From a virus (taxonomy: Duplodnaviria > Caudoviricetes), in IMG/VR virus record IMGVR_UViG_3300043432_000237, positions 32,001 through 96,000 of that record: a DNA stretch of 64,000 nt; one strand, 5' to 3'. Both the position numbers and the translations under genes were made by a program. Under the pieces are notes generated by a model. That model saw nothing but the letters and a program-made list of their open reading frames with translations, was not told the origin of the DNA and made no database searches. Positions 2,754-42,107 of the stretch are shown here, one piece after another (position 1 is the stretch's first letter; each line of letters starts with the position of its first letter).

Positions 2754-3287
2754 ATGCAAAACCGCCTGGAGCTGTCGCCGCCAACCGTGACGCGCCCCTT
2801 CCGCGGGCCCGAGGACACCGTGCGCGAAATGGTGCGCGCGGTGCTGGGGCCGCGAGGCGAGCGCTCGATGCTGGTGCGCACGATGACCGAGCAGTGCGTG
2901 CACCTGCTGCAGGACAAGGACTACCAGAGCGAGCTAATCGCCATCCGCAACTTCGTCGCCACCAAGGGTCGTTACACCAACGACTCACTGGGCGTCGAGG
3001 TGGTGAAGGATCCGCAGCGCCAGGTGGAAGAGATCCTGGCCCGCGGTGTGACCGTCGGCGACTGCGACGACTGCGCCACGCTGATTGCCACCATGTGCCG
3101 CCAGGTGGGCCGCGAGGCCGAGTTCGTGACGGTGGGCTTCGGCTCCCCGAACACCTACTCGCACGTGTTCACGCGCGTGCGCGAGCCCAAGAGCAAACAG
3201 TGGATCGTGCTGGACACGGTGGCGGGTAGCGACGAAGCCAAGATGCTCCGTCGGGTGACGACCTGGCGAGCATGGAGGATTGACTGA
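2754..3287 (+). CDS. Transglutaminase-like cysteine enzyme (candidate maturation protease)
   Basis: GDCDDCA (Cys), YSHVF (His), WIVLD (Asp) in transglutaminase-core order and spacing. Confidence 0.8.
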   Translation: MQNRLELSPPTVTRPFRGPEDTVREMVRAVLGPRGERSMLVRTMTEQCVHLLQDKDYQSELIAIRNFVATKGRYTNDSLGVEVVKDPQRQVEEILARGVTVGDCDDCATLIATMCRQVGREAEFVTVGFGSPNTYSHVFTRVREPKSKQWIVLDTVAGSDEAKMLRRVTTWRAWRID

Positions 3288-5485: not shown

Positions 5486-6937
5486 ATGGCGTTCTATCGG
5501 GTGCTGGTGGCAGAAAACGGTCGCATGCGCGAAGCAGGCGAGGTGCGCCTTGTGGAGCGTGCCAGCAACGCCGAGCTGGAGCGCGTGCTCGCCGACATAT
5601 CAGTCTTCGCGCCCCGGGGACAAGACCGAGTGAAGTGGACCGCAGAGGGCGCCACCATCACGGATGCGCACGGCGACCTGGTGGTACTGAAGAAGGTGGA
5701 GCGCATGAAGGCCAATGCAATGCGGATCCGTAAAGACTGTGCGCACTGTGGTCACCACATGTCGGCGCACCGGTACGACCCGGCAGTGCGCGGCGGTCCG
5801 CAACGCTGCTCTGTGCATGGGTGCCGCTGCACGGTGTTCGAGCGCGCAGCGAAGGGCGCGAGGAAAGTGAAGTTGGAGGCCAACGTGCGCAAGCAGCACT
5901 TTGCTGGGTACGACTTTTCCTCGGGTCCCGAAGGAACGGTAGTGCATCGTCCGCATGCGTCAGAGCTGCGCAGCGGCGATCGGGTCAAGTACAAGGACGT
6001 GAACCTGACCGACCAGGGCACAGTCGTATCGGCATCCGGTAAGTGGGCAGAGGTGCGTTGGGACCGATACCCGAACACTGCCACCAGAGAGTGGGCAGAC
6101 AATCTGAAAGTAGTGTCTCAGATGAACCGAAACTCACGTCACGCTCAGCTCGACTCGCGCACGCGCGAGATCGCCGAGACCGCTCCCATCCTGAACGACG
6201 GCGAGTTCGACTGGAAGGGCGAGGAGGGGCTGCTGCGCATCTGGATGGGCCAGCACGCTCCGACCTTCCTGTACTACTTCGGCAGCAGCGTCGAGGACGC
6301 TTTCGAGGAAGCGGTCGAATGGGCCGATGACCACGCTCCGGGCTTGCTGTTTATGCTGGGGCTCGAAGAGTACAAAGGAGCGGCCGAGGACGAGGGCATC
6401 GAGTGGAACGACGCCTGGCCGGACTTCGAGGACCCGGACTTCCAGCGAGTGGTCGATGCTGCCGAAGCAGACATGACTATCATCGGGCACACCACGCTCA
6501 AGAACGGCAATGCGGTACCAAGCTGGGAGTGGGGAGTCGACGAGATCCACGGCGAGGAGCGCGAGATCGTGACCGCGCGCGCCGCGCCGTACACGTACCG
6601 CATGACCTACGAGATCGTGACCCCGGAGAGCGCCGAAGATGGTGACGCCGCGGAGCGTGGGTGGGAAGTCGAGGAGCCCGCCGGACCCTTCTCACTCGAA
6701 GACCTCGTGCGGGAGGTCAACGATCACACCTGGGTCGAGTGGTCGAACAGCAACCCCACGGGCCAACGGGGCGAGTGGCTGATCAGCGAAGCGGAGCAGA
6801 ACTACTCCACCGGCGAAGACACCAGCTACCACCTGTTCATCGAACGGGTGGACGGGAAGCCGCTTTCCACGGCAGAGATCAAGGACATCAGCAAGGCGCT
6901 CGGTGTCTCGACGTTCGGCATGATGTTTCGGACCTGA
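5486..6937 (+). CDS. Multidomain polyprotein-like protein
   Basis: Unrelated-looking segments (Cys/His Zn-finger, SH3-like barrel, acidic domains) separated by MKAN, LEAN, MNRN. Confidence 0.7.
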   Translation: MAFYRVLVAENGRMREAGEVRLVERASNAELERVLADISVFAPRGQDRVKWTAEGATITDAHGDLVVLKKVERMKANAMRIRKDCAHCGHHMSAHRYDPAVRGGPQRCSVHGCRCTVFERAAKGARKVKLEANVRKQHFAGYDFSSGPEGTVVHRPHASELRSGDRVKYKDVNLTDQGTVVSASGKWAEVRWDRYPNTATREWADNLKVVSQMNRNSRHAQLDSRTREIAETAPILNDGEFDWKGEEGLLRIWMGQHAPTFLYYFGSSVEDAFEEAVEWADDHAPGLLFMLGLEEYKGAAEDEGIEWNDAWPDFEDPDFQRVVDAAEADMTIIGHTTLKNGNAVPSWEWGVDEIHGEEREIVTARAAPYTYRMTYEIVTPESAEDGDAAERGWEVEEPAGPFSLEDLVREVNDHTWVEWSNSNPTGQRGEWLISEAEQNYSTGEDTSYHLFIERVDGKPLSTAEIKDISKALGVSTFGMMFRT

Positions 6938-12496: not shown

Positions 12497-14287
12497 GTGC
12501 CCAAGATGCCCGGAACCATCGGACGAGCGTTCAAGATCAGCAGCAAGCAGGCGAAGAGCTACGGCTACGCCCGCCCCAACCCTGGCGTGACGGCCATCGC
12601 CGCCGTCAACGGCCGCGGGTCCTACACCGCGCGCACGGCCATGACGGGTCGCAGCGCTGCCGGTCGCCTGTCGCACGCGCGCAACGCGACTCGTCGCCAG
12701 CTGAGCGCGGCCGACCGCGCCGCGTTCGCCAAGCGCATGCGCGACGCGCGCCAGCGCAAGATGACCGGCAACATGTCCCGCTCTGCGGCGGGCAAGAAGA
12801 ACATCAAGCGCGCCATCGCCACCCGTAAGGCATGGGGTCGCAGTCTGCAGCGCGGGCACCGGTATCGCGTCGGCGCCGCCGCTTACGGAAAGTCACCCGG
12901 GGCCGCCAAAAAGCTGTCTCCGGGCGTCTACACAGCAAATCGGAGGACAAGAATGCTCAGGAAAAATCGCACCACCGCACGTCGGCGGGGGCGGGTTCTC
13001 CGGAAGAGCCGCAAGGCGCGCCGGATGACCAGCAACCCGAAGGCGCGTCGCACGACTCGCCGCCGCCGGAAGAAGACCACCGCAGCCGCCGCGCCGAAGC
13101 GCCGCCGTCGGGTGAAGCGCCGCCGCAAGGCGACCGCTCGCAAGACGCCGGTGCGCCGTCGCCGCCGCCGCAAGGCCAAGGCCAGCTCGGCAACCCCGAA
13201 GCGTCGCCGTCGGGTGAAGCGCAAGAGCCGCAAGGCGAGCGCTCGCAAGTCGCCGGTGCGTCGTCGTCGTCGCCGCAAGGCCAAGGCCAGCTCGGCCGCG
13301 CCGAAGCGTCGCCGCCGCGTGAAGCGCCGCAAGGGTCGCAAGGCGAAGGCCATGTCGCCCAACCGTCGCCGCCGGGTGAAGCACCGCCGCAACCGTCGCC
13401 GGTCCGGCCGTCGCCTGGGGATGTTCCGCCGCAATCAGGGCTTCATGACCACCCTCAAGGAGGGCGCGAAGGTCGGCCTGATCGTGTTCGCGGGCGTCGC
13501 GGCCCACAAGGCCGCCACCAAGCTCCTGACCGAGCTGGTGCTGGACAAGTTCCTCGGCGCCGCTGCCACCCCGGCCACCCCGCCGGCTCCGGCCGCGGTT
13601 TCGGGACTCGAAGTCCTGCAGCCCTACAAGAAGATCATCGCGGGCATCGCGGTTGCCGGTCTCGGCAGCTTCGCAGCCAACGCCGTGATCAAGGACCAAG
13701 AGACCAAGAAGTACGCCATCGCCGGCATGTGGGGCTCGCTCCTGCACACCGTCATCGTGGACCTCTTGGCCGCCTTCGGTGGAGCCACCGGTGGCAAGGT
13801 TGCGCAGTACCTGTCGGGCTACGACGACAGCACCGCGTACTCCCTCGGCGCTTCGATCATGCCGATGTACCGCCCCGTGGGCGAGTACTTCGATCAGGGC
13901 ATGGGCGAGTACTTCGAGGGCGCCACGGCCGGTCTCGGCAACTACGGCATGAACGGCGACATCTACCAGGCGCAAGCCGGGTACGGCGCCATGCCGGACT
14001 CGAACTCGGGCCACATCGATCCGTCCAGCGACCTCGACCGCGAGCTGACCCTCGCGGAAGCGGCAGCGGGCGTCGGTGCTCTGCCGTCGTACGAAGCAGC
14101 CGCCGGTCTCGGCGACTTCATCGGCAACGGCCACAAGGCGATCGGGTCGCGTTCCACCTGGATCCCGGGTGAGACGAACCCCGGCACCTGGGCACCGGTG
14201 ACCAGCGTCAGCCGCGGCCAGGCCGCGACGGCCATGGTCCCGGCCGGCATCCTGCAGACCGGTGGAGGCTCGGGCGTCTTCGGCTGA
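12497..14287 (+). CDS. Protamine-like Arg/Lys-rich core protein precursor fused to a membrane domain
   Basis: About 300 aa extremely basic N-half, hydrophobic helices, Gly-rich tail with GEYF/GLGNY/GLGDF; directly upstream of capsid candidates. Confidence 0.75.
   Translation: MPKMPGTIGRAFKISSKQAKSYGYARPNPGVTAIAAVNGRGSYTARTAMTGRSAAGRLSHARNATRRQLSAADRAAFAKRMRDARQRKMTGNMSRSAAGKKNIKRAIATRKAWGRSLQRGHRYRVGAAAYGKSPGAAKKLSPGVYTANRRTRMLRKNRTTARRRGRVLRKSRKARRMTSNPKARRTTRRRRKKTTAAAAPKRRRRVKRRRKATARKTPVRRRRRRKAKASSATPKRRRRVKRKSRKASARKSPVRRRRRRKAKASSAAPKRRRRVKRRKGRKAKAMSPNRRRRVKHRRNRRRSGRRLGMFRRNQGFMTTLKEGAKVGLIVFAGVAAHKAATKLLTELVLDKFLGAAATPATPPAPAAVSGLEVLQPYKKIIAGIAVAGLGSFAANAVIKDQETKKYAIAGMWGSLLHTVIVDLLAAFGGATGGKVAQYLSGYDDSTAYSLGASIMPMYRPVGEYFDQGMGEYFEGATAGLGNYGMNGDIYQAQAGYGAMPDSNSGHIDPSSDLDRELTLAEAAAGVGALPSYEAAAGLGDFIGNGHKAIGSRSTWIPGETNPGTWAPVTSVSRGQAATAMVPAGILQTGGGSGVFG
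13094..13350 (+). repeat. About 2.5 tandem copies of a 34-37 aa basic unit (PKRRRRVKR...RK[TS]PVRRRRRRKAKASSA)
   Basis: Direct repeat visible in DNA and protein. Confidence 0.85.
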
Positions 14288-14380: not shown

Positions 14381-14468
14381 ACGTGTCGAAAGAGGACGAG
14401 AGGAACCACGCCTCTCAAAAAATGGTGCTCGCGCTTTGCGGGCAGTAGTCCTCAGGAGAACAAGGACC

Positions 14469-15221
14469 ATGGCAAAAGTAGTTTCCATTCGCGAGCGCGT
14501 TCACCAGCCCTTCTACGACACCCTCGTCCGCACGGCGGGTCTCACGGCCGGTGCGCTCACCGACAACACCTCCCTCTTCACCAGCAACGGTGCACGCACC
14601 GAGGCGACGACCAACCTGATCAACGGCGCCACGCTGCCCTCCGATCAGAGCCACGTCGTGCTCGCGCTCCGCGTCTTCACCTGGTACCGCAACCCGCGCC
14701 TGCGCGTGGCCGGTGCCGGTGCCGGCGAGATCGCGCAGAACGGTGACTACAACTTGCTGGCCCCCTGGCTCGCGGGCGGCGCGGCCGTCGGCCAGGCCCC
14801 CGGTCAGGTGCAGGACGTGTACCGCCTGCACTGGCAGACCGAGGAGCAGCTGCACTGGTCGTTCGGGACCGGGCTCAAGAACTCGATCGACAACATGCCG
14901 ACCTGGTACTTCCCGGCGGGCGGCGGCATCTCGGGCGACATGGGTGGGACGACCGACCTCATCCACTGGCAGAACTCGGGCTACGACGGGCACGCCGGCA
15001 TCCTGCGGCTCGCTCGCGCCGTCCTGATTCCGCCTCGCCAGAACATCCTGTGCCAGGCCAAGGTCTTCGCCCTCCCGAACGCGGGTCAGGCGGTCACCTT
15101 CGGCACGACCCAGGGTGCGCGCGACATGCTCAACCTCCGCGACAACCTGAACGCCATCGACGCGATCGGGAAGTGCGTGATGTTCTGCTTCGACGGCCTC
15201 TTCTCGCGCGACGTTCAGTGA
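14469..15221 (+). CDS. Candidate major capsid protein (single jelly-roll type)
   Basis: Strong SD, biased codons, flanking hairpins; HQPFYDT...LF...TNL..GATLPSDQS motif and beta-strand pattern ending MFCFDGL. Confidence 0.6.
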   Translation: MAKVVSIRERVHQPFYDTLVRTAGLTAGALTDNTSLFTSNGARTEATTNLINGATLPSDQSHVVLALRVFTWYRNPRLRVAGAGAGEIAQNGDYNLLAPWLAGGAAVGQAPGQVQDVYRLHWQTEEQLHWSFGTGLKNSIDNMPTWYFPAGGGISGDMGGTTDLIHWQNSGYDGHAGILRLARAVLIPPRQNILCQAKVFALPNAGQAVTFGTTQGARDMLNLRDNLNAIDAIGKCVMFCFDGLFSRDVQ

Positions 15222-15230
15222 TCCCACACG

Positions 15231-15354
15231 CGCCGGTGGGGGTCCTCTCCGGCCCCCTCCGGCGTTCGTCTGCTCCCGAAGAGCGTGGCACGAGCGGCGC
15301 CGCGCTGGCAGCCCAAGCCGCTACGGGATCTGGTTCGCCAGGTCTCGTAGCGGC
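15231..15354 (+). other. Hairpins downstream of capsid gene (stabiliser or attenuator)
   Basis: CGCCGG..GGGG/CCCC..CCGGCG and GCCGCTACGGGATCTGG-TTCG-CCAGGTCTCGTAGCGGC (15317-15354). Confidence 0.65.
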
Positions 15355-15414
15355 CCGCTCAGACCCTTTGATCCTCAACTCCCAGCCCTCGCCTGAGCGA
15401 GCACGGGGTTTCCC

Positions 15415-16365
15415 ATGAACGTCAATCAGCAGCTCTTGAACCAGCTCAACGCCGCGGCGCAGAACGCCCGCGTCGCATTCGAGCGCGCCGCCCGCGCCGA
15501 ACAGCAGGGCCAGGCCTTGTACGCCCAGGCATCGCAGCTCGCCGGTGAGCTGGAGGCCATGAAGCGCGTCGTCGCCAACCTCGAAGTCTCGCGCTCCGGC
15601 GCTCCGGCTTCCATCCAGCGGGTGGAGAACATCCCGGGCCGACGCATCCCGTTCGATGCACTGGTCGACATCGCCATCGGTGACTCGGTGCAGTCGGTGC
15701 AGCAGGGCTCGATCACCATCTCGCAGGAAGGCCCGTTCGTGGGCGTCAGCCGCGTGATGGCGCTGCTCAGCACGTTCGAGTTCCAGTACCGCGATCCGGT
15801 CTCGGGCGCCGCCAGCGCCTTCCAGGGTCGCTCCTACGGCCGCTACCGTCCCGCGCACAGCGCCTGGGACCTGAACGACAGCATGGTCTCGCCGCAGGTC
15901 TCGCAGGCCGTGGGCTTCCCCGGCACCGGCGCGCCGCACGTGACCAGCCCCGGCACGGCGTCCAGCTTCCGCTCGATGGAGGGCGACTTCCGCATCATCG
16001 TCGAGAACGCCGGCTCCAGCTTCCCGCGCTCGAACCAGGAGGTCCCCTCGGCGTTCTGGTCGCGCGCCATCAACGAGCCCTTCGAGCTGGGCGCGCTCGA
16101 CGTCTTCGAGCGTGGCGAGGTCATCGTCTTCAAGGTGCTGCCGCTGCACCCGAACAACCCGAGCTACGGCAACCTGAGCGCGTTCGGCGCGCCCAACGCC
16201 AGCTTCCCGTTCGTGACGGCCGGCTTCGATGCCGTCGAGGGCGTCAACGACCAGAACGACGCGAACGCCTCCACGACCGATCCCGTGACGCGCCTGGCGA
16301 ACGCCATCGTCACGATCGGCTACCACGGCTACCGCATCATCCAGCAGCCGGGTCTGCCGGGCTGA
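15415..16365 (+). CDS. Candidate second capsid protein (coiled coil plus jelly-roll)
   Basis: N-terminal coiled coil; SITISQEGPFV; ends VFERGEVIVFKV...IGYHGYRI. Confidence 0.55.
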   Translation: MNVNQQLLNQLNAAAQNARVAFERAARAEQQGQALYAQASQLAGELEAMKRVVANLEVSRSGAPASIQRVENIPGRRIPFDALVDIAIGDSVQSVQQGSITISQEGPFVGVSRVMALLSTFEFQYRDPVSGAASAFQGRSYGRYRPAHSAWDLNDSMVSPQVSQAVGFPGTGAPHVTSPGTASSFRSMEGDFRIIVENAGSSFPRSNQEVPSAFWSRAINEPFELGALDVFERGEVIVFKVLPLHPNNPSYGNLSAFGAPNASFPFVTAGFDAVEGVNDQNDANASTTDPVTRLANAIVTIGYHGYRIIQQPGLPG

Positions 16366-16436
16366 GGCGTGCCGACCGAGAGGGTCACCGGAGGGATTGC
16401 GAGCCTCCGGTGGCCATTTCGAGGTAGGCTCACACC

Positions 16437-17312
16437 ATGACGGACTACCGCAACCAGCTGTCGTCAGCCTTCCAGCTCCCGAGCATGGGTCATGTGCCGC
16501 GCGACGCCGGAGGCCCGCTCGGTCCCGGTGGTGGAGCGCACCCTGCGCCGAGCGCTCAGGCTGCGCCGCACCCGGAGCCCGCGCCGGACTTCGTGCGCAC
16601 GGTCGCAGCCGGCGGCGCGCTGCCCGAGCTGTTGCTGCACCCGACCTTCCTGCCCTTCGAGAACTTGTTCCGGCGGCTGCCGGAGGAGGCGATGTTCAAC
16701 GCCTCGCCCGACCGCCCCTACAAGTTCGAGCTGGGCGCGTTCGAGGTCCCCAAGAACCAGGCGCTCCTGCTCGCCGACTTTCGGTTCGCGCTGCATCGCT
16801 TGAGCGGCGCCGCCGCCTCCGACACGGTGCCGATGGAGCCCGAGCGGCTGAGCATGCTGCTGGCGTTCGATCTCACGATCGCCAACAACCGCAAGGCGCA
16901 GCTGCGCATGGAGATCGATCCGGTCACCATCCAGGCACAGAAGGAAGCCTTCCAGAGCCAGGTGTCGGGCGGCACGATCTTCCCCGGCGCGCGCACGGGC
17001 GGCTCTGCGCTCAGCCCGGCCAACAACCTGCAGTACGCGCTCTCGCGCTTCGCGCAGTCGGTGGTGCCGGGTGGCCTGGGCCTCTCGGGCTTGCCGAACC
17101 GCCCGCGCCGCCTGGGCGCCGAAGACTTGCCCTTCACGATGGTCGCCGTCGAGACCCAGCGCGTCCAAGCGAGCTGCGTGGTCTTCCGGCCCATCCCCAT
17201 CCCGATCGCGTTCTTCCAGTGCGACATTTCGGGAGTGCTGATGAGCATGAACACGATGCGCGCGCTCTTCGATGCAGTGAAACCTGCCGTCGAGCGTGGA
17301 GGCATCCGATGA
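16437..17312 (+). CDS. Candidate third jelly-roll structural protein
   Basis: ELGAFEVPKNQALLLADFRF; ends QRVQASCVVFR...QCDISGVLM; capsid gene context. Confidence 0.5.
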   Translation: MTDYRNQLSSAFQLPSMGHVPRDAGGPLGPGGGAHPAPSAQAAPHPEPAPDFVRTVAAGGALPELLLHPTFLPFENLFRRLPEEAMFNASPDRPYKFELGAFEVPKNQALLLADFRFALHRLSGAAASDTVPMEPERLSMLLAFDLTIANNRKAQLRMEIDPVTIQAQKEAFQSQVSGGTIFPGARTGGSALSPANNLQYALSRFAQSVVPGGLGLSGLPNRPRRLGAEDLPFTMVAVETQRVQASCVVFRPIPIPIAFFQCDISGVLMSMNTMRALFDAVKPAVERGGIR

Positions 17313-24876: not shown

Positions 24877-25069
24877 AGACCTGTTGCTGGTGCTCTGGGG
24901 TGAGTGCGCGACCGCTCGACGTGGACGGCGAGCACTACCATGCGCGCTGTCTGCGCGAGTGGCGAGCGCTGGCGCGCACGCTGCGCGCCAGGGCCGGGCA
25001 CAGCACGCAGTTGCACGACAGCCTGGAGGTCGTGCCACCGCAGATCCATTCCAGCGTGGGAGTGCTGCC

Positions 25070-26149
25070 ATGAGTCAAGCCCGGTTGTATGGTCGCGTGC
25101 TGGGCAACGGCTCGCACGTGCAGGTGACGCGCGGCTTCCAGCAAGCCCTGAGCGCTGCGGGCCTGCTGGCGGGTCAGGTGCACCTGGATCTGGACGAGGT
25201 GGACGAGGTGCCGCCTGGAGCGAGCGCGCCCGTGGCGGTGTTCACGGGGCCGCTCAACATGGTGGCGGCCATGCGGCGCAACGCCGACCACCGCGAGCGC
25301 TGGACGCTGGTGGCCCCGAACAGCGACAAGAGCCCGCCGCGCCTGCTGGCTACCGTGGTGGAGCACTCCACCCGCATCCTGACCCCGAGTGACTGGGGCA
25401 CGCGCGTGGTCCAGGCGCAGCTCACGGAGCTGGGGTTGAGCTGTCCCGTTTCGACCGCTCCGCACGGCATCGCCCCGGAGCTGCGAGTGCACCCCGAGGC
25501 GCGCGCGACGATGGAGCGGAGCTACCAGGAGGGCGCCTTCAAGGTGCTGCACTTCTCGACCAGTGATCGCCAGCGCAAGGGCACGCGCGAGCTGCTGCAG
25601 GCCTGGCAGGAGCTGGCGCCGGTGCTGGGAGACCGCGCACACCTGATCTTGGTGCTGGATCCTCTGGCGGAAAGCGCACTGAGAGCCTGGTGTGTGGACG
25701 AAGATGCGCAGCGCCTGATCCTGCACCCGCAGGTCAGCTTGCTCACTCGACTGGATTGTTCCCCCGCGGACATGGCCCGCGTGCTCTCGTCGGTGCACGT
25801 GGTCTGTCAACCCTCACGGGGAGAAGGTTTCGGACTGGTGCCGCTCGAAGCGCGCGCCTGTGGCGTGCCGGTAGTCATGACCGACTGCACCGGGCACAGT
25901 CAGCACACGCACATTGGGGATCCGGGCGTGCTGGTGGTGCCGACGTACGACCCCGCCCCCATCGACGACTGGGAGGGCGCACGCGCCCCTGCGCTGCGCG
26001 TGCCCGATCTGATCGAGTTTTTGGCCGGTGCGCACGCGCTCTGGCCGTCCCTGAATGCCTCCGCGCGCGCCGCCGCGCCGGAGATTCAGTCCTGGTGGAG
26101 CTGGCCCGAACAGCTGAGAGGAGTGCTAGATGCCATCCGAGAAACCTGA
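25070..26149 (+). CDS. Glycosyltransferase, GT-B (family 4-like)
   Basis: QRKGTRELL; VCQPSRGEGFGLVPLEARACGVPVV. Confidence 0.9.
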   Translation: MSQARLYGRVLGNGSHVQVTRGFQQALSAAGLLAGQVHLDLDEVDEVPPGASAPVAVFTGPLNMVAAMRRNADHRERWTLVAPNSDKSPPRLLATVVEHSTRILTPSDWGTRVVQAQLTELGLSCPVSTAPHGIAPELRVHPEARATMERSYQEGAFKVLHFSTSDRQRKGTRELLQAWQELAPVLGDRAHLILVLDPLAESALRAWCVDEDAQRLILHPQVSLLTRLDCSPADMARVLSSVHVVCQPSRGEGFGLVPLEARACGVPVVMTDCTGHSQHTHIGDPGVLVVPTYDPAPIDDWEGARAPALRVPDLIEFLAGAHALWPSLNASARAAAPEIQSWWSWPEQLRGVLDAIRET

Positions 26150-31658: not shown

Positions 31659-33093
31659 GTGAACTGAAGTTGGCGACGGGAACCGATGGCAAGTTGTGTC
31701 TGATGGCGAGCGTTCCAGGTGTCGCAGCGATGTTCGGTCTAGATGACCTGGTCCAGTGCCTCAAGGCCAACCCCGAGGCGTGCGCGGAGGTGTGGGACGC
31801 GCTGTGCGAGACGGAATGCGCCGGGCTCGTGTCGCGCCGCTGGTACGTGGGGGAGCAGACCGCGCGCAAAGAAGCCGAAGCCCGCGCAGAGAAGTTCGCC
31901 GCAGAGCGCGAGGAGAAGCCCGCGCAGGGAAGGCGGGAGGACGAACGCGAGAGAGGGGAGCCCGCTCTGACTTGCCGTGCATGTGGCAAGCCTCTCGTGG
32001 GTGAAGAGCAGCGCATCGTCGTGCCTCCCTGGATTTGCACCTGCGAGGCGTGTGCGGGCTACCCGCCTCGCTCGCGTGACGGGATTGCCCCCGACCCAGC
32101 GGTAGCGAAGGCACTGATCGAGCTGCAGGACACGTGGGGGATCGACGGAGAGCAAGCGGAGCACGTCGCCGAGGTGCTGAATGACGTCTACAATGCGGCC
32201 TACCTGTCGGCGGCGACCCAAACACATGCGTGGCGCCGGCTGACCGCGGACCCGGAATCCTGTCCGGCTGAGGGGGACACGGTGGTGTTGCTCGACGAGG
32301 ACAACCAGGAGCTGCGCCTGGCCGAGTGGCCCCCGCTGGTAGCGGATCACGGCTGGACGCACTGGCAACCGGTGCCGTGGCAGGAGCCACCGTGAGCGAG
32401 TCAGCTTGGCACGAGTGTGACCAGTGGATGGTGAGAGTCGATGGGGGTCCAGGGTTCTGGGCTCCCAGCTGTGGCGGCGTGTTCAGGTGCGACGAATGCG
32501 GAGACCTGGTGGGGTGGTGTTGCGGCGGCTCCGAGGACTGGGTAGACGAGACCAAGCCCGATCCGGGGGTTATCTGTAACGAGTGCTGGGTGGAGCACTA
32601 CGGAGAGGAAGACGACGACGATGGTGGTGGAAGGCAGAGATCTGATGGTGGTCACGCTGAAGGCACACGCTCAGCACGTGCTGCAAAGGCTACTGCGACC
32701 CGTGCGACGAATCGTCAGCGCGGAGCTGGTCGAGGACCAGCGCGTCACCGGAGACATTCTGAGTGAGCTACTGGGCTCGCGCCGGTGCGCGGAAGGCAAC
32801 GCTTGCCTGGCGCAGGAGCTGGCGCTCCGCATCGAACGATCGGAGGCGCAGCTGTATCAGGTGGGCGCGACGCGCGGAGACATTCTGCAGCGGGCCACGC
32901 GCGTCCGGGCCTTGTTCGACGTCATGCTGAACGAACCCGACCCGGTCGAGCTGCTGACTGCATTGGAGGACGCGCTGTACCTGGCCGAAGAGGGCTGGTC
33001 GTACGCGGACGAGTACTTCCAGAAGAAGTGGGAGTTCAAGCAACGGCTTGCTACGCTGCGTGCCGTGGTCCAGGACGCAAAGGAGAAGCTGCA

Positions 33094-33918
33094 GTGAACG
33101 TCGGCAAGCTGTTGGCAACGGAGGAGCGTGAGCCCGTCGAGCGCTGGGTGCGCGCGCACGTGCAGACGGTGTACTGCGGATCCAACGTCGCGCTCTGTCG
33201 CGTGCTGGGGAAGTACCTGTGCCAGGTCGACACGCGCGACTTGTCGCTGGCACCGTACCTGATGTTGGACGGTTTCTGGGAGATGTGGATTTCGCAAGCC
33301 ATCGCGCGGCACGTGCAGCCGGGAATGATCTGCGTGGACGTGGGCGCGTGCTTCGGCTACTACACGCTGCTGTTTGCCGAGCTGGCGGGCCCCAGCGGTC
33401 ATGTGATCAGCTACGAGCCCAACCCGGCCTGCGCTCAGCTCCTGCGGCGCACGTTGGCCTTGAACGGTCTGACTGAGCTAGTGGACGTGCGAGAGAGCGC
33501 CGTGGGCAGCGAGCAGGGCATGGCGAGACTGTGCCTCATGCCAGACCGCTGGGGCGACTCGCGGCTGAGCGAGTCCGTGCCACCGCGCGAGACCGGACAG
33601 CCCGAGTCGCTGTCGTTTGCTGTTCGGAAAGCTCCGCTGGATCTGGATCAGCGCGTGGACGTGATGAAGATCGACGCGGAGGGCTCCGAGCCGGACATCT
33701 GGGTGGGCATGCAGGAGCTGCTGCGTCGCGACAACCCGTTGGTCCTGATGGAGTTCGCGCCCTCGGCGCTCAAATCGCCCGAGGCGCTGCTGGCCCTGGT
33801 GACGTCGTCCGGCTACGAGCTGGCCATCGTGGACGAGGCGGGGCTTCGTCGCCCGGCGACCCGTGAGTACCTGCTGGGGGACGGGGAAATCAGGACCCTC
33901 TGGCTGCAGCGCCAGTAG
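33094..33918 (+). CDS. FkbM-family SAM-dependent methyltransferase
   Basis: VDVGACFGYYT, YEPNP, VMKIDAEGSE. Confidence 0.9.
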   Translation: MNVGKLLATEEREPVERWVRAHVQTVYCGSNVALCRVLGKYLCQVDTRDLSLAPYLMLDGFWEMWISQAIARHVQPGMICVDVGACFGYYTLLFAELAGPSGHVISYEPNPACAQLLRRTLALNGLTELVDVRESAVGSEQGMARLCLMPDRWGDSRLSESVPPRETGQPESLSFAVRKAPLDLDQRVDVMKIDAEGSEPDIWVGMQELLRRDNPLVLMEFAPSALKSPEALLALVTSSGYELAIVDEAGLRRPATREYLLGDGEIRTLWLQRQ

Positions 33919-38100: not shown

Positions 38101-38502
38101 TCAGGGCAGCGCACATGTGGACCTCAGGATGACCCCGTGAGCCATCAGCACGCTGAGCACGGTGAGGCGAAACAGGGTGTCCTTTGCACGCTGTTCGGGC
38201 GGCAGATCGGAGTAGGGCACCAGGCACGGGTGCTCCTTGGTGCTCTCGTCCTTGACCGGCCCGTGTCGCCACCCATCCCGCAGCTTCAGCTCCATCCAGC
38301 GCGCGTGCATGTCCGCTGGACTGCTGTGCGGGTTGTCCAGCAGCGCCTGCACGCCCTGCAACGCCGAAGAGCGCTGCCAGGCTGGCGCGTAGTCCCAGCA
38401 GGGGTGAGAGAAGTCGTGTAGCCCACGACAGAAGGCACGGTTGACCTCGTGCGCCGTGCGCGCGGCCAGCTCGATCAGAATCTGCTTGTTCTCAGGTGTC
38501 AT
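38101..38502 (-). CDS. RyR-domain phage protein
   Basis: HARWMELKLRDGWRHGPVKDESTKEHPCLVPYSDLP. Confidence 0.85.
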   Translation of the reverse strand: MTPENKQILIELAARTAHEVNRAFCRGLHDFSHPCWDYAPAWQRSSALQGVQALLDNPHSSPADMHARWMELKLRDGWRHGPVKDESTKEHPCLVPYSDLPPEQRAKDTLFRLTVLSVLMAHGVILRSTCALP

Positions 38503-38797
38503 CAGGCCGTCCTTTGCTTCTTGCGTTTGCGTGCCACGGTCAGTCCATAGAGCGTGGCCAGTAGCAGCTGCGCCCCTTCGGGAAACCGCACCGCGGTGTA
38601 GGTGCGGGCGGCGACCAGCTCCGCCACGCGCTGGCAGCCCCAGCGCTCCTCGGGCGCCCGGCCGCTCAGTGAGTCCAACACGGAACCGGCGCGAGCGGCA
38701 GCCCACAAGTGCGCGTTGATGTGATGCGGAAACCTCACGCCGCGCTCAGTCAGCAGGACGGTGCAGGTGCCGTCGCCGCACTTGACCCGAAACTTCC

Positions 38798-40042
38798 TCA
38801 CGAGAGGCCTCGTTGCACGTGCACCACCGCGCGCACGTAGCTCGGAACGGTCGAAACGGGCGCCGCGTGCGCGCCGATCAGCGCCACGATGATCTCCTGG
38901 GAGGGCACTGGCTTACTGGTGGGCCAAAGCGTGTGCCCGTCGGTCAACAGGATGACGACGTCGCCGTGTTTGCGCGCCGCCTCCAGACCGTTGCCCAGGT
39001 ACGTGCCGCCGCCGCCCACCAGCTGGAGCTGGTCCACGTTGCGTACGAGCTGCGCCGCCGCGGCTTCGGTGTCGCAACAGATGACGGACACAGCGTGCTG
39101 TCCGATGGCGCGCACGATGCCCGGGATCTCGGCCAAAGCAAGCGGCAGCTCTTCTGCGGCACCCATGGAGCTGGAAGTGTCGAGCACGATCACGACCCGG
39201 GGAAGCCGGCGCACCATGGCAGGCAACAGCACCCCATTGAACGTCCCGCGCCGGCTGCGGCGCGCGTAGGAGTAGTCCTCGCAGCCCGTCGCCAAGCGGC
39301 AGGCCGCGTGAGTCTGGGCCATCAGGGTGCGCTCCCAGGGGATGGTGGGCGCGCGCAGGCGCTCGGTAGCCCAGCGCACGGTGCGCCCAGGCAGGCTGCC
39401 GTGCAGGCGCACGTGAGCCAGGATGTCCCGTGCGGTCTGGTCTCGAATCAGATCCACCTCGACCGGCCCGTAGCCTGGCACGGAGCTGTCGTCCCCCTCT
39501 TCGTAGTCTTGCGGCAAGCCGTGCGCAGCGCTGCCGCACATCAGGGGCGGAGTACTGGTGTCGTCGTCTCGGATCGCAGCGTAGTACTGCTCCCAGAACA
39601 GGTCTACGGGCTGCTGCAGCGTGCGCGGGAAGATCCGGGTCTCGTGTGCGGGCAGCCGGCCACCCTCGGCCTCCAGGTCGTCGTTGATCTCGGCGTCCGT
39701 GCACCGATTGATCAGCCACGCGGTGTGGGCCTTGCACGCGCTGGTGCCCAGCAGCGTCTCTGCCCGGTCAGCGTGCCCGCGCAACCAGTGCTGCAGCTCG
39801 TGCAGCAAGGCCCACGAGGCCTCCGCGACCTTCCAGCTCAGGGTCGGGTCCCAGTAGACGCGCCCGCGACGGTCCACCGCAAACGTGCCAAGGCCAGGTC
39901 GCCGCACGGGTACGAGCGCCGTGAGCGACAAGGCCAGGTAGGGGCGCTTGGTCAGCGCCGCGAGGCGCACTGCAGCGAAGTCGAGAGCCATGCTGATCCA
40001 TGGTACGGAGCCATCAGCCAGAGCTTCCCTGCAGATACTCAC
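38798..40042 (-). CDS. HExxH metallopeptidase-like plus VWA protein (DUF2201-like)
   Basis: LLHELQH; VLDTSSSM MIDAS; GGGGT; LTDG. Confidence 0.85.
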   Translation of the reverse strand: MSICREALADGSVPWISMALDFAAVRLAALTKRPYLALSLTALVPVRRPGLGTFAVDRRGRVYWDPTLSWKVAEASWALLHELQHWLRGHADRAETLLGTSACKAHTAWLINRCTDAEINDDLEAEGGRLPAHETRIFPRTLQQPVDLFWEQYYAAIRDDDTSTPPLMCGSAAHGLPQDYEEGDDSSVPGYGPVEVDLIRDQTARDILAHVRLHGSLPGRTVRWATERLRAPTIPWERTLMAQTHAACRLATGCEDYSYARRSRRGTFNGVLLPAMVRRLPRVVIVLDTSSSMGAAEELPLALAEIPGIVRAIGQHAVSVICCDTEAAAAQLVRNVDQLQLVGGGGTYLGNGLEAARKHGDVVILLTDGHTLWPTSKPVPSQEIIVALIGAHAAPVSTVPSYVRAVVHVQRGLS

Positions 40043-40943: not shown

Positions 40944-42107
40944 TCATCGCCCACCTCGCATCATGCCAGCGGCCTGCAGCAGCGGCCGGAACAGCTCGAC
41001 GGCCTTGGCCGCCTCGACAGGGTAGCCGTCCTGGGGAGCCACTTTTACCGACGCCAGTGCGCGCATGGCCATTGCCGCGATGTCCCCGTGCCCGAGCTGG
41101 TGCGCCCGGCCCATCACACGCACCCCAGCCGACCAGCGCGCCTTGGTGTTTTCGCGCAGTACCGCGTTCGTGACCTCGGTCAGGATCACGAAGATCTTGT
41201 CTCCGCGCGGCGGCAAAACGAGCCGATCGGGATGCGCCAACAGCTCCTCGGGATCGGGCAGATCCAGGTCCACGGCGTAGGCCAGGAACGCGGTCGCCGC
41301 AGCCGGGCCGACGCAGCCAGACACCAGCAGGCGAGCCAGCGGGCTGATGTTGCCCTGGTGCTGAGGCAAGCCCTGCCCGAACGAGCCCGCGGCAGCCAGC
41401 AGATCCATGGCCGCCGTCCAGCTGCGGAAGCTCGGCCACGGGCCGGACCGCGCCGCGGCATCCGTCGGCAGGTTGTCGATCGCGCTGGGCATGTGCTGCG
41501 CGAAGCCCGCCACGACCGCCCGCACGCGGTCGAGCCCCGCGCGCCAGTCGTCGGCCACGGTCACCACCGGTGGCGGCGGAAAGCCGCGCAGCATCTGCTG
41601 CACCCAGTAGTCCACGGGCATCTGCCAGGTGAGGTGGCAGAAGCGATTGGCCAGCGGCGCGCTCAGCGCGGTGCCGCTCTCCGCCTGCTCGGGCGGGTTC
41701 ATGGCCGCCACGGTGGCCAGCTTCGGGATGTGCACGTCCCCCCAGGTGCCCTCGTGCACGCCGCGCATGGCCGCGGCCCGGGTCGCCGGTGGCCCGTTGC
41801 CCAGCTCGTCCAAGAACAAGCCCGCGCGGTGCTCGGCCTGCGCCAACCGGTGCACCCAGTCGCACGGCACGAGCGCGACGACGGCGGGCTGCGTCTCCGT
41901 CGCGGCCTGGGGACACGGATAGCCGCCGTACTCGGGCGGCTCGTGCAGCGCCGCGATGCTGACGTGCGACTCGTCGCAGAGCGTCCCCAGCAGGTGCCCC
42001 ACAATGGAGGTCTTGCCGCAGCCCGGCGGACCCGTGAGTAGGCAGGCCACGCGCGCCTGGATGCAGACCGCCACCGCGTCGATCGTCGTCTGAAAGTCCG
42101 TGCTCAT
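40944..42107 (-). CDS. MoxR-like AAA+ ATPase
   Basis: GPPGCGKT Walker A; LFLDE Walker B; AAMNP; PLANRF. Confidence 0.9.
   Translation of the reverse strand: MSTDFQTTIDAVAVCIQARVACLLTGPPGCGKTSIVGHLLGTLCDESHVSIAALHEPPEYGGYPCPQAATETQPAVVALVPCDWVHRLAQAEHRAGLFLDELGNGPPATRAAAMRGVHEGTWGDVHIPKLATVAAMNPPEQAESGTALSAPLANRFCHLTWQMPVDYWVQQMLRGFPPPPVVTVADDWRAGLDRVRAVVAGFAQHMPSAIDNLPTDAAARSGPWPSFRSWTAAMDLLAAAGSFGQGLPQHQGNISPLARLLVSGCVGPAAATAFLAYAVDLDLPDPEELLAHPDRLVLPPRGDKIFVILTEVTNAVLRENTKARWSAGVRVMGRAHQLGHGDIAAMAMRALASVKVAPQDGYPVEAAKAVELFRPLLQAAGMMRGGR

Follow-up and report, generated by a model that had tools for sequence, protein, structure and literature searches.

The stretch of DNA analysed here (the window) comprises 64,000 nucleotides (nt), i.e., bases 32001–96000 of an IMG/VR virus record of 125,036 bp that bears direct terminal repeats (IMGVR_UViG_3300043432_000237), and has a G+C content of 67%. 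The public runs that match it best are freshwater metagenomes, and one of them is flagged as a possible source of the DNA. On its plus strand, the open reading frame (ORF) at 12497..14287 is a real and conserved coding gene for a polybasic protein, predicted to be membrane-anchored, in which a protamine-like arm is followed by hydrophobic helices and an acidic tail, and which is encoded beside capsid-like genes. We favour, with moderate confidence, the view that this is a virion protein, neutralising DNA with its arm, seated in a lipid layer through two of its helices (H2 and H3) and contacting other virion proteins through motifs of its tail. The lineage that carries the gene appears to consist of undescribed large bacterial viruses (about 95–180 kb) that contain a membrane and apparently lack a tail, the bacterial nature of the host being probable.

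Read from the GTG at 12497, the ORF specifies 596 amino acids (aa), with a mass of 64.7 kDa, an isoelectric point (pI) of 12.0 and a net charge of +116; read from the ATG at 12506, it specifies 593 aa, and the latter codon is more likely to be the true start, since the relatives begin with MxGTIGRAF. Our comparisons drew on some 65 homologues from metagenomes and on 15 viral loci related to this one, the contigs being up to 179 kb long. At these 15 loci, a single uninterrupted ORF of 596–815 aa is kept, in which the same N-terminal domain is joined to the same C-terminal half, while the arm varies in length and sequence. The G+C content at third codon positions (GC3) is 0.86 over the ORF (0.74–0.96 along its length) and matches that of the neighbouring genes. 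Moreover, in a strain of about 93% identity, represented by contigs from another freshwater run, the insertions and deletions (indels) found inside the ORF (+12, +9, −102, −6 and +9 nt, of which the −102 is one repeat unit) net to multiples of three, and 1-nt indels sit only at the annotated GTG start (12504, 12506) or past the stop codon. On these grounds, the basic region is translated within one protein.

The anatomy of the protein was established from an alignment of 22 full-length homologues and from an AlphaFold2 model of residues 306–596 computed with 34 sequences; all its parts lie on the plus strand. It opens with a family-specific N-terminal domain of about 85 aa (12506..12760), which reads GRAFKIS..A..YGY..PN followed by PGVTAIAA.NGRGSY... 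in the alignment and contains the nearly invariant Asn28 site (nt 12569–12580). When this domain was searched with phmmer against 1.84 billion representatives, 19 matches were returned, always at the N-terminus of the protein, the long ones having 485–823 aa. The polybasic arm (12761..13435) comes next, punctuated by hydrophobic-x-x-Asn: residues 1–313 carry a net charge of +123 (87 Arg, 38 Lys), and Arg makes up 35% and Lys 14% of residues 141–330, where the net charge is +14 to +19 per 30 residues. Within the arm, a tandem repeat (13088..13374) is made of about 2.5 copies of a 105-nt (35-aa) unit with 82–84% matches; the number of repeats differs between strains, since a net 102 nt of it is missing in the strain of about 93% identity (window 13123–13231). 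The arms of the relatives, about 300–470 residues long and of +115 to +170 net charge, are built from different repeat units, and the arm of a relative with 56% G+C is Lys-rich (98 Lys, 76 Arg), whereas the one described here is Arg-rich. Because arm charge is kept while sequence and Lys/Arg usage change, selection appears to act on charge and not on sequence.

The arm ends at the junction motif FRRN (residues 310–313; 13424..13435), of which Asn313 is invariant in 22/22 full-length homologues, and gives way to three helices modelled with a predicted local distance difference test (pLDDT) above 90. Helix H1 (residues 314–353; 13436..13555), with conserved G333 and H337, is marginally hydrophobic: the longest run without K, R, D, E or H in this 40-residue helix has a median of 12 (range 11–21), and a conserved His-Lys lies mid-helix. 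In contrast, helix H2 (residues 371–397; 13607..13687) is of canonical transmembrane type, with a best 19-residue Kyte–Doolittle (KD) score of 2.02 here and a family median uncharged run of 19, as is helix H3 (residues 401–427; 13697..13777) with a median uncharged run of 20, the two being linked by a 3-residue loop (KD..T[RK]). If an integral membrane protein is taken to need at least one conserved helix with about 19 or more uncharged hydrophobic residues, both H2 and H3 are predicted to be such helices. When the three helices were searched as a fold, only generic helical matches came back (Z at most 6.7). Beyond H3, a short linker leads to the acidic Gly/Ala-rich tail (13778..14284), predicted to be disordered from residue 446, the charge of which is about −11 here (residues 439–596) and −9 to −14 in the family (residues 446–596). 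Its conservation takes the form of a set of longer motifs, and not of a bare xLG: GxGEYF (1–4 copies), AAAGxG, SDLDRELTxAEAAAGVG and the C-terminal GILQTGGGxGxFG.

The original prediction had singled out eight tetrapeptides in the basic half, and all of them are present, with their Asn at the residues indicated (ARPN 28, MTGN 92, YTAN 148, LRKN 157, MTSN 180, MSPN 289, HRRN 299, FRRN 313); as claimed, FRRN stands exactly at the basic/hydrophobic junction, the AlphaFold2 helix starting at residue 314. Written as [MLFYH]xxN, the motif occurs 11 times in the polybasic protein against 2.55 expected (0/300 shuffles reach 11), the strongest excess of 131 genes and the sole significant enrichment in the genome. 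Over 47 homologues, 309 of the 465 arm Asn residues (66%) have a hydrophobic residue at −3, compared with a background of 15%; family-wide, this position shows an enrichment of about 7-fold for each of L, M, F and H, and at +1 there is an excess of Gly and Pro. The motif is densest over the 25 residues that precede the junction (9.5 per 100 aa). Yet hydrophobic-x-x-Asn is also found past the basic half (FAAN395, YGMN486, FIGN544), and at the tail site Y483-x-x-N486-P (nt 13943–13954), both Y483 and N486 are conserved in 34/34 sequences and P487 in 29/34. As for the LG-type motif, it is weakly enriched, with 5 occurrences vs. 1.7 expected (p about 0.04) in the polybasic protein and 26 vs. 17.9 in the structural module. 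The idea that the two motifs are confined to separate halves of the protein is thus not borne out. Its statistics and conservation mark the Asn motif as a real one with some function, yet “basic side” and “tail side” are not set apart by it, because an invariant site also occurs in the acidic tail. We also rejected hydrophobic-x-x-Asn as a genome-wide virion code (178 occurrences vs. 152 expected): [MLFYH]xxN is not enriched in 5486–6937 and only weakly so in 57855–59870 (7 vs. 3.5, p about 0.04), nor is it conserved near the termini of other virion protein families.

At no fewer than 15 loci, the polybasic gene is found directly upstream of the same gene set, which encodes proteins of 261, 316, 291 and 249 aa; in the window, the first three of these conserved downstream genes occupy 14436..17312 (plus strand). 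The model of the 316-aa capsid-like protein (15415–16365, plus strand) shows a long N-terminal helix and a jelly-roll-like beta-sandwich (pLDDT 62), and viral jelly rolls are among its top fold matches, i.e., PBCV-1 (8h2i, Z = 7.3), EhV-201 (6.9), SPV1 (6.7), HHIV-2 (6.5) and HCIV-1 (5.9), where the confidence line of the search is Z = 8. Foldseek searches of PDB and BFVD with this model (E up to 0.001) found no match. On the whole, the model suggests a jelly-roll-like fold for a protein that has over 600 homologue clusters (>50% identity) on contigs of up to about 180 kb. The notion of three jelly-roll paralogues was not confirmed by sequence and was set aside, as hhalign among the 261-, 316-, 291-, 249- and 294-aa families gave at most 1% probability. 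The structural module is rich in small membrane proteins, several of which have a single C-terminal hydrophobic segment, and the structural proteins neighbouring the polybasic protein are near neutral (−6 to +4, compared with +116 per polybasic copy). Just upstream of the window, the structural block is headed by a 164-aa protein with a net charge of −30 and a pI of 4.1 (genome 29143–29637; L003:11143–11637), which could chaperone the polycation.

Neither the polybasic protein nor nine of its neighbours has a match in Pfam or PHROGs, and a Pfam-A scan over the whole length of the former (E up to 0.01) returned 0 families. A sequence search of the PDB had no match with an E-value under 0.14, the clusters recovered from the ESM Atlas were all viral and unnamed, tblastn with the C-terminal half and the capsid-like protein found no match in 50,697 phage records, and literature searches yielded no description of the family. 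The matches in genome collections are contigs of metagenome-assembled genomes (MAGs) of inconsistent taxa (Pseudomonadota, Pirellulales, Gemmatimonadota, Methanomicrobiales) and give no host assignment. A practical point is that public gene calls of the family are systematically truncated: they are often cut to 327–362 aa and begin at the internal Met of an MRRN motif, leaving about 1.3 kb as “non-coding”, while the true ORFs specify about 700 aa (e.g., loci L006:8882–10987 and L007:8915–11023). Homologues of 327–362 aa were therefore rejected as natural arm-less forms.

In the accepted view, phages with double-stranded DNA (dsDNA) package it naked, by means of an ATP-driven motor, and leave the neutralisation of its charge to ions and polyamines, while protein-mediated DNA condensation is known mainly from eukaryotic viruses and a few archaeal viruses. 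In the 125-kb genome, the packaging ATPase profiles PF04665 (Pox_A32) and PF01580 (FtsK) have no match at E up to 0.1, a scan of the large ORFs gave no Terminase_6N, FtsK/SpoIIIE or portal-like Pfam match, and Walker-A scans recovered only SNF2, DnaC-like, DnaB and MoxR-like AAA proteins as P-loop proteins. According to the reading that we favour, the arm, with its 300–470 residues and charge of +115 to +170, would bind the genome non-specifically and neutralise its phosphate charge; by simple arithmetic, full neutralisation of the 125-kb genome, with its 250,000 charges, would take about 2,000 copies. The H2–H3 hairpin, with the conserved H1 packed against it, would hold the protein in the lipid layer of the virion, the fixed short motifs of the disordered acidic tail would contact other virion proteins and, without a recognisable packaging motor, the DNA would be condensed and wrapped instead of pumped. 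DNA binding is the natural reading of the arm because, the neighbours being near neutral, the module offers no other polyanion to set against +116 per copy, which leaves the genome as the sole stoichiometric counterpart. The reading as a whole, with virion location, DNA binding and membrane insertion, is inferred from context, namely the conservation of arm charge, the synteny with the capsid block, the membrane-type helices and the lack of a match to a motor. Regarding the earlier proposal of one precursor tethering condensed DNA to a membrane, the precursor itself has held up, in that a single translated ORF joins the protamine-like arm to the hydrophobic helices and is conserved beside a jelly-roll-like capsid gene; the tethering of condensed DNA is what the favoured reading would add to it.

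Several considerations weigh against this interpretation. A polycation of 300 residues cannot be exported across the host membrane, and assembly in the style of PRD1 would leave the arm outside the vesicle, facing the capsid and not the DNA lumen; contact with DNA would thus need a different (wrap-around or de novo) membrane biogenesis. Only H2 and H3 look like canonical membrane spans and H1 does not, so that more than one topology is possible. Moreover, the jelly-roll scores of the 316-aa neighbour are middling, with Z below 8 and Foldseek E-values of about 0.03 in PDB and 0.004 in BFVD. Finally, a packaging ATPase could have been missed or be too divergent, since CheckV rates the record at 80% completeness despite its terminal repeats. 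Should the reading hold nonetheless, a conserved membrane-anchored polycation of protamine scale, encoded beside capsid genes in a widespread lineage missed by databases and with no detectable motor, would suggest that a bacterial virus can also be built by another route, of which the three invariant or nearly invariant Asn sites are concrete and testable features.

These sites also bear on whether the protein is processed. It could be a precursor that is cut after Asn at hydrophobic-x-x-Asn, either by a transglutaminase-like enzyme or by Asn-Pro self-cleavage, which would refine the favoured model without replacing it; we regard this as possible but rather doubtful. As in adenovirus pVII and pX/mu, processing would free protamine-like peptides (with a median of about 22 aa if all sites were used) along with a membrane/tail fragment. 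It is consistent with the strong enrichment and conservation of the motif, its highest density being in the 25 residues before the junction, with the invariant Asn313 lying exactly at the arm/helix boundary and with Asn28 and Asn486, nearly invariant and invariant, respectively, such sites being often followed by Pro or Gly. Furthermore, the window encodes a transglutaminase-like (papain-fold) protein of 177 aa (2754..3287, plus strand; PF01841, E = 3e-8) with a conserved Cys-His-Asp, a candidate processing enzyme, the gene of which is a core gene of the lineage, occurring in 5/5 related genomes, 10–17 kb upstream of the polybasic gene and on the same strand. Its profile matches gp34 of Salisaeta phage SSIP-1 (21296–22210; E = 1e-8), annotated as “structural protein”, i.e., a homologue that is a virion protein, and this match is the sole sequence link to a cultured virus. 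On the other hand, the enzyme may instead serve to hydrolyse the cell wall during entry, Asn313 could serve as a helix N-cap, given that the helix starts at 314, and the Arg-Arg-Asn-Arg-Arg pattern also resembles nucleic-acid-binding arginine-rich motifs such as that of HIV Rev, while the lack of genome-wide enrichment and of conservation near the termini of other virion proteins also speaks against a processing signal. In a more far-reaching version, which seems improbable to us, N28, N313, N486 and the arm copies may be substrates of Asn-directed chemistry by either of the two routes, resulting in cleavage that frees the protamine-like peptides or in Asn-Lys isopeptide cross-links through which DNA, polycation and membrane would be fixed together as a covalent core. 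If true, this would mean a motor-less “condense-and-wrap” assembly in bacterial viruses, with a maturation code without known counterpart.

The position of the arm relative to the membrane leads to another alternative. The claim that the two motifs mark opposite membrane sides conflicts with the invariant Y-x-x-N-P of the acidic tail. It would also require a three-span N-in/C-out topology in which H1 crosses the membrane, whereas the uncharged run of H1 is about 12 residues long (vs. 19–20 in H2 and H3), and a hairpin that leaves both ends on the same side is just as possible. Were arm and tail to share the capsid-facing side, the polycation might coat anionic lipid heads or act as an electrostatic scaffold or size tape, and not as a DNA condenser. 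That only H2 and H3 are canonical spans, that arm and tail share the Asn motif, as expected of one compartment, that the arm stays in the cytoplasm while the protein is made, in keeping with the positive-inside rule, and that arm length varies widely (about 300 to 470 residues) would all suit such a role, but a charge of +123 per copy is far above what near-neutral capsid proteins could balance, it is charge and not length or sequence that is conserved, and DNA condensation better explains the missing packaging motor; we therefore hold this role to be unlikely. Since polycations are membrane-active, one may also imagine that the protein acts outside the virion, as a late membrane-bound polycation that takes part in lysis or that, at the cell membrane, compacts or sequesters the DNA of host or virus. 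This we consider very improbable: the gene has an invariant position inside the capsid gene block at 15 or more loci, such roles do not require a large conserved tail and N-terminal domain, and a possible cell-wall enzyme is encoded elsewhere (the weak M15-type match mentioned below).

Taken as a DNA-neutralising virion protein, the polybasic protein is functionally nearest to adenovirus pVII/pX and ascovirus P64, although it lacks every defining sequence feature that could be tested. The adenovirus proteins are likewise Arg-rich and neutralise dsDNA, the virus described here, to judge from the 316-aa model, likewise has a jelly-roll-like capsid, and in pX, too, a basic peptide is followed by a hydrophobic C-terminal segment, with a cut at the junction. 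However, there is no sequence similarity to pVII/pX, the 125-kb genome holds no adenain gene (Peptidase_C5, PF00770), the polybasic protein has 0 sites of the adenovirus protease consensus, (M/I/L)XGX-G or (M/I/L)XGG-X, and the candidate motif has Asn at P1. Compared with the adenovirus core proteins, it is also ten times larger and probably membrane-embedded, in a virus whose host is probably bacterial. Ascovirus P64 is a virion protein of 64 kDa and pI 12.2, the basic tandem-repeat domain of which condenses a dsDNA genome of 100–200 kb, and its family is defined by four vs2C-ad motifs (pfam08793) and Ser/Arg repeats (PMC6163548). The polybasic protein is close to it in mass, pI and possession of a tandem repeat (64.7 kDa, pI 12.0, 35-aa unit in about 2.5 copies), but is devoid of N-terminal vs2C-ad motifs (no Pfam match), of Ser/Arg repeats and of Cys (from ATG 12506); conversely, P64, which belongs to an insect virus, has neither membrane helices nor an acidic tail. 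A basic-plus-hydrophobic design is also found, on a smaller scale, in the J protein of phiX174, the basic part of which binds the genome while its hydrophobic end tethers it to the particle; with about 37 aa, J binds single-stranded DNA and docks into the capsid protein, not into a membrane.

Among tailless viruses with an internal membrane and single jelly-roll capsid proteins, SSIP-1, the Sphaerolipoviridae/HHIV-2 and the archaeal SPV1, which wraps its nucleoprotein core in lipid, resemble the present lineage in the capsid fold, as far as the jelly-roll-like model of the 316-aa protein goes, and in the many small membrane proteins of the structural block, but its genomes are 3–8 times larger than theirs. 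Neither the capsid genes nor the polybasic protein could be connected to SSIP-1 by profile, searches of the SSIP-1 genome with profiles of the capsid-like families and of the polybasic protein giving E-values of at least 0.06, and a packaging ATPase was not found here. A 2019 review of membrane phages makes no mention of DNA-binding, condensing or nucleoproteins. In the structural block of SSIP-1, ORF 51 (38488–38631) encodes 47 aa with a charge of +13 and a hydrophobic C-terminal end, and may be a miniature basic-plus-hydrophobic counterpart.

The rest of the genome includes bacterial-type replication genes (DnaB, DnaC-like loader, beta clamp and SNF2 helicase). The MoxR-like AAA ATPase (40944–42107, minus strand), which is the sole non-replicative P-loop protein, is encoded beside a DUF2201_N metallopeptidase plus VWA protein (38798–40042, minus strand). 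The match to an M15-type peptidase (60650–61327) is weak and below the cut-off (23.7 vs. 25 bits), pointing at most to a possible cell-wall enzyme. Sugar-modification genes are found at 24884–26149, 32785–33918 and 50887–52068 of the window and at 98259–101808 of the genome, and encode a GT4 glycosyltransferase, an FkbM methyltransferase, an NAD epimerase, a DegT aminotransferase and a GNAT-methyltransferase-GT2 fusion, which suggests glycan modification of the virion or of the host surface. Finally, a tmRNA (53313–53667, minus strand; Rfam RF00023, 88 bits, E = 3e-34) adjoins tRNA-Gln, tRNA-Ile and tRNA-Arg genes (52505–53127), with a tyrosine integrase (56224–57513) about 2.5 kb away.

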